Assembly: GCA_002310215.1 (NCBI GenBank)
Contig: DBYR01000013.1
Coordinates: forward strand, 147,137 to 211,136
Direction: 5' to 3'
From: Bacteroidales bacterium UBA1181
Lineage (GTDB): Bacteria; Bacteroidota; Bacteroidia; Bacteroidales; Paludibacteraceae
DNA: 64,000 nucleotides
In this document: positions 3,348 through 5,681 of the stretch, one piece after another
Position numbering within the stretch: position 1 is the stretch's first letter
Layout of the letters: each line of letters starts with the position of its first letter
Program-made: the position numbers and the translations under genes
Notes under the pieces: model-generated
Database searches by the model: none
Told to the model about the DNA's origin: nothing
What the model saw: the letters and a program-made list of their open reading frames with translations, nothing else

Positions 3348-4058
3348 ATGAAGAGCATTTACAATAAAAGAGCTAGATTGTTTTCATCTATTGCAGCGAT
3401 GGCAATTCCTTTGATAGTTTTATCATTTATTTTTATCCATATGGGTATACCTACTATCTGGGACATTCCGGGAACAAAGGCTATTACTTCTTTCATTCCT
3501 TCTGCGTTGATTATTGCAACCATTGGTTATCTACTTGAGGAATTGTTTAATTCCACATCGAAAATAATTTTCCAATTTCCTCTCTTTTCGGAAAATGAAA
3601 CAAACATGCCAACAACAAAACTTTTATCGTGGAGTTCTAAGGAGCGTTTGTCAGATGATATGATAAAGCAGATAGCAATACGGGTAAGACACGATTTTGG
3701 CATTACTCTTATGTCTGCCACAGAAGAGAAAAAGAAATCTAATGCCAAAGAAGCAAAACGTAGAATTGTAGATGCTGTGGGTAAGATACGAGAAGAAACA
3801 CGAGAAAATGAAAATTTAATGAGATATAATATTCAATATGGCTTTTGTAGGAATTATCTTGGAGGCTCAGTATATGCATTACTTTTCCTTGTTGTAGCAA
3901 TTATTATTAATTGCAATATCGCATTCATGAATAACATACTTTTATGGATGTTGTTGGGTATACAAATCATACTAGTTGTACTGTTCTTTTTTTCACTTAA
4001 ACATATAGGAAATTCATACGCAAGAGCTTTGTATAACGCATATATATCTAAAAAATAA
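3348..4058 (+). CDS. Multi-pass membrane protein of unknown family (N-terminal and C-terminal TM pairs flanking a charged helical segment)
   Basis: 236 aa. Hydrophobic segments AAMAIPLIVLSFIFI, SFIPSALIIATIGYLL, VYALLFLVVAIII and LLWMLLGIQIILVVLFFF. Its stop lies 5 nt before the next start. Confidence 0.7.
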   Translation: MKSIYNKRARLFSSIAAMAIPLIVLSFIFIHMGIPTIWDIPGTKAITSFIPSALIIATIGYLLEELFNSTSKIIFQFPLFSENETNMPTTKLLSWSSKERLSDDMIKQIAIRVRHDFGITLMSATEEKKKSNAKEAKRRIVDAVGKIREETRENENLMRYNIQYGFCRNYLGGSVYALLFLVVAIIINCNIAFMNNILLWMLLGIQIILVVLFFFSLKHIGNSYARALYNAYISKK

Positions 4059-4063
4059 GTTTT

Positions 4064-5269
4064 ATGGACAAAAATATTATTACATTTTATCCCGTAGACA
4101 ATGGGGATTGCATTCTTTTGGAAATGAAAAATGGTCTAAAGATGATGTGGGACTGCAAGTTTAGAAACTCTGTGGAAAATTCAGATGACGAAAGCAAATT
4201 TGATGTGATTAATAATTTGCTAAATTACAAACTTGAAAAAAAGGTGAGTAAACTACCTTTCATAGATGCTTTTGTGCTATCACATCCTGATCAAGACCAT
4301 TGTCTGGGCTTTAACAACAAATTCTATTTGGGTGATCCTATAAAAATATCACAAAAGGACATTGATGCCCAAAAGATTCTTATTGGAGAATTATGGTATT
4401 CACCAAGAGTATTTATAGAACATACTGACGAATTATGTGTTGATGCCATTGCGTTTAAAAAAGAAGCAGATAGACGTATGCGATTGTTTAAGGAGGATCC
4501 TGTTAGAGCCAATCAAGATGGTAATAGAATAAGAATTGTAGGTTGGGCCGATCTTGACAATCTTGTTGGATTAGAAAAAAGGATCACCATTCCTGGCAGT
4601 GAAATTAACGAAGTAAATGGCCATAACTATAATGATTTCAGAATCTTTATTCATTCCCCATTTCGTAATGCGATTGAAAATAATGATAGAAATGAAACAA
4701 ACATTGTAATGCAATTTAGATTCGATTGGAATTCCATTAAGGATGTGGCAAATTTGATTCTTGGTGGTGATGCTGAATGGCGTGTTTGGGAGAAAATCGT
4801 TAAATTAAGTGATGTGAAAACTCTTAAATGGGACCTTTTTGAAGCTCCACATCATTGTAGTTGGTCGTTCTTTGCTGACGATAGGGAAAATGACAAACCC
4901 AATAAGAGTTCTTTGGATTTTCTGGCAAAACGAAATAGCAAAGCAATTATTGTGTCATCGTCAAAGTATATTTCTCATAAAGATTCTAATCCTCCATGCA
5001 AAAAAGCAAAAAATAGATATGTAAAAGAAATAGGCGAAAATAATTTTTACTGTACTGGGGGAGATTGTATTGATGGCACTCCCTCTCCTCTTGCCTTTGA
5101 GGTTACAAATTCTGGGTTCAAAAAAATTGAGCATAAAATCGATGATAGTCAAGCACATGATTATGCAGATGCATTTATCAATGGTAAATTAAAACTAGGA
5201 GCTACAGGATTAAATCTATCGTTGGGTAATTCTATTGCAAAGTCTGGGGGATTCTATGGTAAAGAATAA
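4064..5269 (+). CDS. Metallo-beta-lactamase-fold hydrolase of the ComEC/Rec2 (COG2333)-like type
   Basis: 401 aa. The motifs appear in the canonical order for ComEC-type MBL domains: VDNGDCILLE, a variant HxHxDH motif (VLSHPDQDHCLGF), GGDAEWRVWE and EAPHHCSW (compare HHGS). Confidence 0.8.
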   Translation: MDKNIITFYPVDNGDCILLEMKNGLKMMWDCKFRNSVENSDDESKFDVINNLLNYKLEKKVSKLPFIDAFVLSHPDQDHCLGFNNKFYLGDPIKISQKDIDAQKILIGELWYSPRVFIEHTDELCVDAIAFKKEADRRMRLFKEDPVRANQDGNRIRIVGWADLDNLVGLEKRITIPGSEINEVNGHNYNDFRIFIHSPFRNAIENNDRNETNIVMQFRFDWNSIKDVANLILGGDAEWRVWEKIVKLSDVKTLKWDLFEAPHHCSWSFFADDRENDKPNKSSLDFLAKRNSKAIIVSSSKYISHKDSNPPCKKAKNRYVKEIGENNFYCTGGDCIDGTPSPLAFEVTNSGFKKIEHKIDDSQAHDYADAFINGKLKLGATGLNLSLGNSIAKSGGFYGKE

Positions 5270-5681
5270 TTTTCATACATCAAATAATAACGACAAGCAA
5301 ATTGCCGCAATGAAACATTTTTATCCAAAATGCACATACATAAAAAGGGAGGGACAAGTGATTTTCACTTTTTGGTTAAAAGTATTAGATTCCCTTCCCG
5401 AGTATAAAGTCAAAATAATATACCAAGGGAATCTCCGACCCAAAGTGTTTGTGCTTTCCCCAAAGATTGTTGATCAAGCCAAACACACCTATAAAGATGG
5501 AAGTTTGTGTTTGTACCACGATCGCAATTTTAAATGGTCCTCATCAAAATTGATTGCGAAAAATATAGTTGGATGGACAGCGGCATGGATCTATTTTTAT
5601 GAGTACTGGTTACAAACAGGGAAATGGATAGCAAAAGAGGTTCCTCATTCCTTGCAACAAGACAAAACTCTAATGAATTAG
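5256..5681 (+). CDS. Small UBC/E2-fold-like protein (candidate prokaryotic E2)
   Basis: The ATG at 5256 overlaps the MBL gene stop by 14 nt. RPKVFVLSPKIVDQAKHTYKDGSLCLYHDRNFKWSSSKLIAKNIV aligns by eye with the UBC core PPKVxFxTKIyHPNIxxxGxICLDILkdqWSPAltIskvL. The ORF track also offers an alternative start at 5235. Confidence 0.6.
   Translation: MVKNNFHTSNNNDKQIAAMKHFYPKCTYIKREGQVIFTFWLKVLDSLPEYKVKIIYQGNLRPKVFVLSPKIVDQAKHTYKDGSLCLYHDRNFKWSSSKLIAKNIVGWTAAWIYFYEYWLQTGKWIAKEVPHSLQQDKTLMN

Follow-up and report, generated by a model that had tools for sequence, protein, structure and literature searches.

Two described bacterial systems lie closest to the locus reported here. The operon type '6a' consists of an E2-E1-JAB triple fusion, i.e. 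ubiquitin-conjugating (E2), ubiquitin-activating (E1) and JAB peptidase modules in one protein, together with a specialised metallo-beta-lactamase (MBL) fold protein (Iyer, Burroughs & Aravind 2006, PMC1779556). As 6A-MBL it is named as a defence system in PMC13276650, which cites van den Berg et al. 2024, and both PMC13276650 and 10.1101/2025.09.30.679545 count it among jumbo-phage defences. The other system is E2-CBASS, the short type II form of the cyclic-oligonucleotide-based antiphage signalling systems (CBASS), which comprises a CD-NTase, a single E2 and an effector (Yan et al., 10.1101/2022.05.25.493364; Xiao et al. 2026, PMC12948482; PDB 8hsb). In the solved CdnG-E2 complex the E2 is recruited by a 'C-terminal alpha-helix and three-stranded beta-sheet' of CdnG (PMC12948482). 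His87 and Cys101 of the Serratia E2 are required for trimming and for thioester formation on the C-terminal Gly of the cyclase, and His152 governs the interconversion with an isopeptide. The linkage joins Gly406 to Cys101 with the terminal Glu removed, and a Gly-to-Ala change still permitted it (10.1101/2022.05.25.493364). In this study we analyse a three-gene locus in a 64,000-nucleotide stretch of Bacteroidales bacterium UBA1181 (contig DBYR01000013.1, positions 147,137 to 211,136; hereafter the window). The locus encodes a transmembrane (TM) protein, an MBL-fold hydrolase and a stand-alone E2. We propose that it is an E2-only ('short') variant of 6A-MBL and a member of neither system proper.

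The genes of the locus are as follows, with the sources of each assignment in brackets.

3348-4058, plus strand: gene 1, a 236-residue protein with four TM segments (open reading frame (ORF) list, hydropathy, AlphaFold2 (AF2) model)
4064-5269, plus strand: gene 2, a 401-residue hydrolase of the MBL fold resembling ComEC, which is the 6A-MBL family's enzyme component (NF058524, metal ligands, AF2, Foldseek)
5117-5266, plus strand: C-terminal tail of gene 2, residues 352-401 (BLASTP, PADLOC, tblastn, alignment, AF2)
5256-5681, plus strand: gene 3, a 141-residue stand-alone E2 of the E2-CBASS family (PADLOC, PF26395, PDB 8hsb_B)

The original prediction, made from the sequence of the window, had described three co-directional and tightly packed genes in an AT-rich island. 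Their coordinates, the spacing of 5 nucleotides (nt) between genes 1 and 2 (4059-4063), the overlap of 14 nt between genes 2 and 3 (5256-5269) and the GC content are all borne out, the last being 31-36% across about 1000-5500 versus 45-57% in the flanks. The description of the trio as a conflict-type operon, transcribed as one unit, is supported as well. Gene 3 has an alternative TTG start at 5235; its 141 residues are counted from the ATG, and homologues align from the N-terminus MVKNN, that is, from the ATG start.

Gene 2 matches the NCBIfam equivalog NF058524 ('anti-phage 6A-MBL system MBL-fold protein') over residues 8-351 with 326.2 bits at a cutoff of 220. All four ComEC-type MBL motifs that had been read in it are present (VDNGDCILLE, SHPDQDH, GGDAE and APHHCSW), and its HxDxDH motif is encoded at nt 4283-4300. 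The metal ligands H74, D76, D78, H79, H197, D236, H263 and H264 are invariant or conserved in at least 90% of 73 homologues. While a sequence search of the PDB gave no match to gene 2, its AF2 model (predicted local distance difference test, pLDDT, 87.6) found relatives by fold. Foldseek ranks the ComEC MBL domain first among these (9ic4; E 6.8e-13, TM-score 0.73 on the target, 16% identity), and the MBL-fold cyclic-nucleotide phosphodiesterases 4ojv and 7e3w are matched as well. Gene 2 is a hydrolase of the 6A-MBL family whose fold resembles that of ComEC and whose di-metal site is intact. ComEC/Rec2 resembles the locus as the closest solved fold to gene 2, in its HxDxDH-type metal motif and in the joining of an MBL nuclease to a membrane module. 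It differs in being a single polytopic DNA-uptake protein, in its low identity to gene 2 and in its channel domain, which gene 1 does not resemble.

The C-terminus of gene 2 departs from that of its closest family members. Most MBL relatives (50-59% identity, about 375-380 residues) end in KPH[YF]YG followed by 0-3 residues, and at every inspected locus with this tail the MBL gene is adjoined by cap2_3, which encodes the triple fusion. The MBL of the window exceeds the MBLs with this classical tail by about 20-25 residues in length, and so do its E2-linked relatives. In our alignment (A2) an insertion of about 22 residues relative to cap2_3-type MBLs is found in E2-associated MBLs only; Y398 is invariant and G399 is conserved in at least 90% across all aligned MBLs. 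The window MBL ends in ...SQAHDYADAFINGKLKLGATGLNLSLGNSIAKSGGFYG-KE, the last residues being SGGFYG399-KE with Gly399 at nt 5258-5260. For comparison, the CD-NTase of an E2-CBASS operon (locus L003; L numbers denote comparison loci on other contigs) ends in ...EEAKRMSDLLTSGNLKYGAATGLSSVSGHEVAASKGFYG-EE. In BLASTP the two tails are 43% identical over 44 residues (E 4e-7), a PADLOC cyclase model matches residues 357-400 of gene 2 with its positions 276-320 of 324, and tblastn matches between MBL tail and cyclase tail are reciprocal. AF2 models a helix at 361-372 followed by short strands (377-379, 382-384, 389-390), after which the end is disordered. The partner-enzyme feature of E2-CBASS, a helix and beta-sheet as in CdnG with a conserved Gly for the E2 to bind, is present, but on the MBL. 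The last 45 or so residues of gene 2 are homologous to the tail by which the CD-NTases of E2-CBASS recruit their E2, and by analogy Gly399 is the predicted conjugation site. From these comparisons, a 6A MBL gene appears to have lost its 3' end along with cap2_3 and to have gained instead the 3' end of a cyclase gene along with the E2 gene that follows it.

Another tail was seen at L096 (288-1920), where an E2-linked MBL carries the hybrid ending ...GLTHKPHNFYA-ENS, with Ala in place of Gly. On the opposite strand this system is adjoined by a patatin, another MBL and an NB-ARC protein.

Gene 3 had been read as a protein of the UBC/E2 type, and it belongs to the E2 family of E2-CBASS. PADLOC models of CBASS E2s match it with E-values down to 1.6e-34, and PF26395 (E2-CBASS) is recorded for all 37 of its homologues. 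Our scan gave no Pfam match for gene 3, the local Pfam apparently being without PF26395, and no NCBIfam match. Alignment with the Serratia E2 (PDB 8hsb_B) places Cys101 at Cys85 of gene 3 (nt 5508-5510). H77, C85, H88 and H131 are invariant among 17 E2s from both contexts (CBASS and MBL); H77 and H131 were equated with Serratia H87 and H152 indirectly, from their places in the family alignment. Gene 3 is an E2-CBASS-family E2 with invariant His77, Cys85 and His131. Its relatives at 44-54% identity sit in operons of cyclase, E2 and TM protein (20 of 20 loci in species-representative genomes and 30 of 39 in metagenomes). L003-L005, its closest relatives in CBASS, show the same overlap as genes 2 and 3, with 14 nt shared between the cyclase gene and the E2 gene. 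In many Bacteroidota E2-CBASS operons (L006-L008, L024, L035, L054, L061 and others) the TM effector is followed by a second, divergent SMODS/NTP_transf_2 gene, and in L006-L008 this gene is followed in turn by a protein of about 713 residues with no Pfam match.

Concerning the genes that would place the locus in one of the described systems, a canonical Bacteroidales 6A-MBL locus (L012) gives 344 bits for the MBL on NF058524 and 407 bits for its neighbour on NF058523 (cap2_3). By tblastn, neither the island nor the whole 64-kb window holds a cap2_3 gene (Prok-E2_A + ThiF + Prok-JAB) or a gene for an E1, for a JAB protein or for any ubiquitin-like (Ubl) protein, in agreement with the original prediction, which had found no E1, JAB/deubiquitinase or Ubl gene nearby. 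Since no ORF for a Ubl, an E1 or a deubiquitinase occurs at 1-12000, the locus does not fall among Bil, Bub or other Ubl-conjugation operons. The only ThiF-fold gene, at 9678-10478 (266 residues), was considered as a hidden E1 and rejected. It is TcdA-like (149 bits, under the curated cutoff), has host-like GC content, lies 4 kb downstream and outside the island, and scores 52 bits on NF058523 versus a cutoff of 320; it very probably encodes a housekeeping protein. The window also lacks a detectable CD-NTase: tblastn with a cyclase finds the tail of gene 2 alone, and no Pfam, NCBIfam or PADLOC cyclase domain is found in gene 2 beyond its last 44 residues.

With 6A-MBL the locus shares the MBL family at equivalog level (50-59% identity to Bacteroidales members), the C-terminal [FY]YG end, a four-TM partner family that occurs in many members, and a defence-island or mobile-element context. 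It differs in lacking the E2-E1-JAB fusion, so that there is no adenylating E1 and no JAB peptidase; in having a single 141-residue E2 of PF26395 rather than Prok-E2_A; and in the cyclase-type insertion of about 22 residues in its MBL tail. With E2-CBASS it shares the E2 family and the catalytic residues, a recruiting tail on the partner enzyme that ends in Gly plus 1-4 residues, the 14-nt overlap of enzyme and E2 genes seen in the closest operons, a small multi-TM protein as third gene, and nearest E2 relatives in Bacteroidota CBASS. It differs in having no CD-NTase or nucleotide cyclase, the candidate conjugated enzyme being by analogy the hydrolase, and in a TM protein unrelated to the CBASS TM effector. 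With a hydrolase in place of the cyclase, no cyclic-oligonucleotide signal is expected. The E1E2/JAB form of type II CBASS (Cap2/Cap3) and E2-CBASS likewise represent two alternative conjugation modules that serve one enzyme family; the enzyme there is a cyclase, whereas here it is an MBL. As one defining feature of each system is missing (cap2_3 and the CD-NTase, respectively), the locus was filed as a variant and not as a member.

The original prediction recognised no named defence system in these genes. This does not hold for the parts, gene 2 being an NF058524 equivalog and gene 3 a member of the E2-CBASS family, but the combination of MBL and single E2 looks undescribed. The literature that we searched contains no description of an E2-only 6A-MBL and none that joins E2-CBASS with a lactamase; the 2024 primary report on 6A-MBL lay outside that search and may mention it. 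What looks new is a 6A-type MBL with a single E2 instead of E2-E1-JAB, a cyclase-type tail on an MBL, and a conserved but unnamed four-TM partner.

The arrangement is not confined to the window. E2-only loci of 6A-type MBLs comprise L001/L002, L019, L020, L042-L049 and L096, all from metagenome assemblies, and the window's island itself was recovered on 18 contigs from different samples. L001/L002 have the order TM-MBL-E2 with an additional short MBL, and L045-L049 the order MBL-E2-TM; L042 carries a different TM protein of 204 residues, and L043 and L044 show no match to a TM protein of the gene 1 type. The MBLs of L042-L049 are only 37% identical to that of the window. Among metagenomes, four MBL lineages or more have the E2-only form. 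Trees were built by neighbour joining without support values and serve as indications only; in the tree of the MBL core, E2-only MBLs appear polyphyletic among cap2_3 forms. The closest MBL with a classical tail (homologue P0043, 59% identity) accompanies cap2_3. Relatives were found on 284 plasmids. When 185,579 species-representative genomes were scanned with the E2, 20 loci were found, each a Bacteroidota CBASS of cyclase, E2 and TM protein and none with an MBL, so that the E2-only variant is rare in genomes; the scan used exact peptide patterns, and absence from it is no proof.

Truncated MBLs next to an intact E2 were found at L015-L018 and L041 (e.g. L017 3277-4486). They measure 268-269 residues and start at about residue 141, so that HxDxDH is lost and the tail is kept, and no TM gene is found by homology. 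These loci could be decay products, or the tail-only protein could act as a decoy or regulator. Directly upstream of E2-only systems of the L042-L049 type lies a 338-residue protein with no family match (L042 5720-6736; L046 2263-3279), and a WYL-domain protein is encoded divergently from an Escherichia coli plasmid 6A-MBL (L087 3992-4852). Either protein could be a transcriptional regulator of these systems.

Gene 1 has four hydrophobic segments by hydropathy, at about 12-32, 44-64, 171-191 and 196-217, in line with the four TM helices originally assigned to it, and a helical soluble domain of about 105 residues lies between the two TM pairs. The AF2 model is all-helical (mean pLDDT 94.8). 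The family has the conserved motifs MPTT (88-90) and YGFxRNxxGG (164-173) and comprises 405 clusters at 50% identity. Gene 1 itself has no match above threshold in Pfam, NCBIfam, PADLOC or PHROG. SLATT/DUF4231, which had been suggested as a family to check, found no support, there being no match to either in gene 1 and no Pfam SLATT match in 97 family members; DUF2207_C was matched below threshold in 7 of the 97 only and was judged compositional. Comparison with the 261-residue TM protein of E2-CBASS operons gave nothing in BLASTP and an hhalign probability of 0.1%, and a fold search of the PDB gave no match at E <= 0.001 and no known pore or channel fold.

Homologues of gene 1 adjoin 6A-type MBLs in L001, L020, L009-L014, L045-L049, L086 and L088, including systems with cap2_3. 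In Bacteroidales systems of the cap2_3 type the homologue lies upstream of the MBL gene and overlaps it, on an Emticicia plasmid (Cytophagales) it lies downstream of cap2_3, and on a Clostridium perfringens plasmid it is again upstream. A second, unrelated family of small multi-TM proteins with no family match is encoded downstream of the E2 in L042 (8458-9072, the 204-residue protein mentioned above) and L019 (2272-2796, 174 residues) and downstream of cap2_3 in L095 (9251-9766, 171 residues), so that it covers both conjugation modules. The general architecture is an MBL plus a conjugation module, long or short, with or without a small multi-TM protein of the first or the second family. Further observations concern a short MBL with weak Avs1a/ComEC-like matches, which stands directly beside gene 1 homologues in L080 (5106-7543) and L081-L085 (IMG/VR contigs). 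L080 has a 300-residue MBL-like protein as a third gene, and TM protein plus short MBL looks like an unnamed module of two or three genes. The short MBL also adjoins several 6A-MBL loci (L001 6436-7299, L012 4149-5066, L046 5724-6737).

We consider it reasonably probable that the locus is a modular E2-only 6A-MBL variant built from two known systems, in which the E2 conjugates the C-terminus of the MBL. By analogy to Serratia CdnG-E2, the E2 would dock on the MBL tail, clip the Lys400-Glu401 end by a Cys/His protease-like activity and take up Gly399 as a thioester on Cys85 with neither E1 nor ATP. Lysines might then receive Gly399, whether a C-terminal one in the E2 itself, for instance K137, or those of other MBL molecules. 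How active the hydrolase is would be set by the MBL-E2 adducts or MBL chains so formed. Judged by its fold and context, the MBL may be a metal-dependent enzyme, nuclease or phosphodiesterase, whose target on infection is the nucleic acid of phage or host. The four-TM protein could hold or gate the MBL at the membrane or act as a membrane-damaging co-effector, and the outcome would be phage restriction or abortive infection.

Several points weigh against this proposal. Anti-phage activity of 6A-MBL is reported for the cap2_3 form only, as cited in the review PMC13276650 and expressed in the NCBIfam name. Conjugation of an MBL, whether by E2 or by cap2_3, is suggested here by analogy, and we found no published precedent. 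The similarity of the tails spans just about 44 residues, for which the AF2 model has moderate pLDDT of about 53-77. The Serratia lysine K159, the isopeptide acceptor, falls in a column that is not conserved in the E2 family. As regards the enzyme, a modelled likeness to ComEC of TM-score 0.73 at 16% identity is no proof of nuclease activity. The 6A-MBL of E. coli plasmids consists of two genes, MBL and cap2_3, with no TM protein, and given this form the TM protein may be accessory. The gene 1 family also pairs with a different short MBL of 286-337 residues with no E2 or cap2_3 homologue detected in the sampled flanks (L080, L082, L084, L085), and so seems linked primarily to MBL-fold enzymes rather than to the conjugation step.

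A bolder form of the proposal is put forward tentatively, as possible but doubtful. The single-E2 cassette and tail would be a portable regulator that moved from cGAS-like cyclases to an unrelated hydrolase, and the E2 would trim the MBL and link or polymerise it through Gly399 without E1 or ATP. The four-TM protein would in this form be an obligate third subunit that places the nuclease at the membrane, making the pair a split analogue of ComEC that could act on entering phage DNA.

The remaining features of the island are as follows.

5686-5728, plus strand: hairpin 3' of the operon, a candidate terminator (folding versus shuffles)
3015-3347, no strand assigned: AT-rich divergent intergenic region of 333 bp (ORF list and sequence)
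1722-3014, minus strand: AAA_21 ATPase, AbiLi-like (Pfam AAA_21 7e-36; PADLOC AbiLi 2.4e-76)
1131-1712, minus strand: RloB-family protein, AbiLii-like, partner of the ATPase (Pfam RloB 3.3e-17; PADLOC AbiLii 2.3e-17)

The ATPase and RloB pair noted beside the trio by the original prediction is thus recovered with strong PADLOC matches; the two genes lie side by side as in the PADLOC definition of AbiL (AbiLi + AbiLii), divergent from the trio. The pair resembles AbiL in this and, as far as direct evidence goes, is only a recurrent neighbour of the trio. The 333-bp region presumably holds the promoters of both the AbiL-like pair and the trio; sigma-70-like promoter matches in it show no excess over shuffles, a test that is uninformative for Bacteroidota. 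A 58-residue ORF at 3175-3351 is probably spurious. The hairpin that had been noticed after the last gene folds with -21 kcal/mol (z = -2.47; 3 of 200 shuffles were equally stable) and has no U-tract. Compared with the two nearest relatives of the trio, the proportion of synonymous differences (pS) is 0.61-0.83, that is, near or at saturation, and non-synonymous differences amount to 0.15-0.24 in the MBL and E2 genes and to 0.24-0.51 in the TM gene. Since the latter are far lower than pS, the three ORFs are genes under purifying selection and not chance ORFs.

Downstream of the island, a cellulase/type IX secretion system gene (5821-7881) is present or absent among same-species contigs with an identical island (L089 versus L090-L092), so that this flank is strain-variable. 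Further on, at 10764-16274, lies an ORF of 1836 residues with several near-identical internal repeats of about 170 residues and a GC content of 56-60%.

Three other readings of the locus were weighed. The TM protein might be the killing effector and the MBL an upstream sensor or signal-maker in the place of the cyclase, as in CBASS. Once activated through conjugation by the E2, the MBL would make or release a small molecule or a fragment of nucleic acid, and this would open the four-TM protein so that the membrane collapses. The MBL does occupy the slot of the cyclase: its tail and the 14-nt overlap of its gene with that of the E2 are those of the cyclase, and the third gene again encodes a small multi-TM protein; the TM partner is swapped between two unrelated families and varies in position, as is typical of effectors; and polar positions of its soluble domain (G165 and N169 invariant, R168 conserved in at least 90%) are suggestive of a ligand site. 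The phosphodiesterases 4ojv and 7e3w among the Foldseek matches fit this reading as well. However, the enterobacterial two-gene form lacks the TM protein, so that the MBL apparently can be the effector itself, gene 1 is unrelated to the CBASS TM effector and has no known pore or channel fold, and in structure the MBL comes closest to a nuclease domain rather than to a signal synthase. Taken together we regard this reading as unlikely. It is less probable still that the AbiL-like ATPase and RloB nuclease act with TM protein, MBL and E2 as one system of five genes. L020 contains the same five (RloB 75%, AAA_21 69%, TM 58%, MBL 72% and E2 65% identity; ATPase/RloB at 649-2529), and its homology to the window is restricted to them, but this contig measures just 6.1 kb and its flanks are barely sampled. 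AAA_21 genes also stand beside L001/L002 (alone and divergent, 2388-3743 in L001), L019 and L009-L014. In the last group they are co-directional, overlapping cap2_3 by 4 nt in L012-L014 (L012 9304-10659) and lying 18 nt downstream in L009-L011. Against a common system, the AAA_21 subfamilies differ among loci (26% versus 39% identity), RloB occurs in the window lineage only, no AAA_21 adjoins L042-L049, L086-L088 or L096, and AAA_21 with RloB is a self-sufficient known pair in PADLOC.

Very improbable, finally, is a pair of TM protein and MBL with a function of its own beside an E2 that a broken CBASS operon left orphaned or decaying, with no functional coupling. Pairs of TM protein and short MBL with no E2 or cap2_3 detected in the flanks do exist (L080, L082, L084, L085), and the remnants of truncated MBL and E2 at L015-L018 and L041 show that decay occurs in the family. 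The cyclase-type tail on the MBL, however, makes sense only if the E2 uses it. Overlapping MBL and E2 genes recur in four or more MBL lineages, with identities of the MBL as low as 37%, the catalytic residues of the E2 are invariant, and non-synonymous divergence (dN) is far below synonymous divergence (dS) in all three genes.

On our preferred reading, an E2-only 6A-MBL variant, the locus is a natural experiment on the portability of the single-E2 cassette. With its three small proteins in place of a triple fusion of 720 residues, the E2-only form offers a compact entry to the mechanism of 6A-MBL. Current annotation models miss both this form and the gene 1 family, which with its 405 clusters and no Pfam entry is likely an unrecognised component of 6A-MBL in Bacteroidota and Clostridia. 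If the bolder form with a portable cassette were true, the locus would be the first case in which an enzyme other than a cyclase undergoes ubiquitin-like conjugation independently of an E1. If the E2 does conjugate the MBL, the tail of about 45 residues would be a defined 'degron-like' handle, suitable for grafting to other proteins, and the E1-free mechanism of one CBASS class would be a general, transferable control of defence enzymes.

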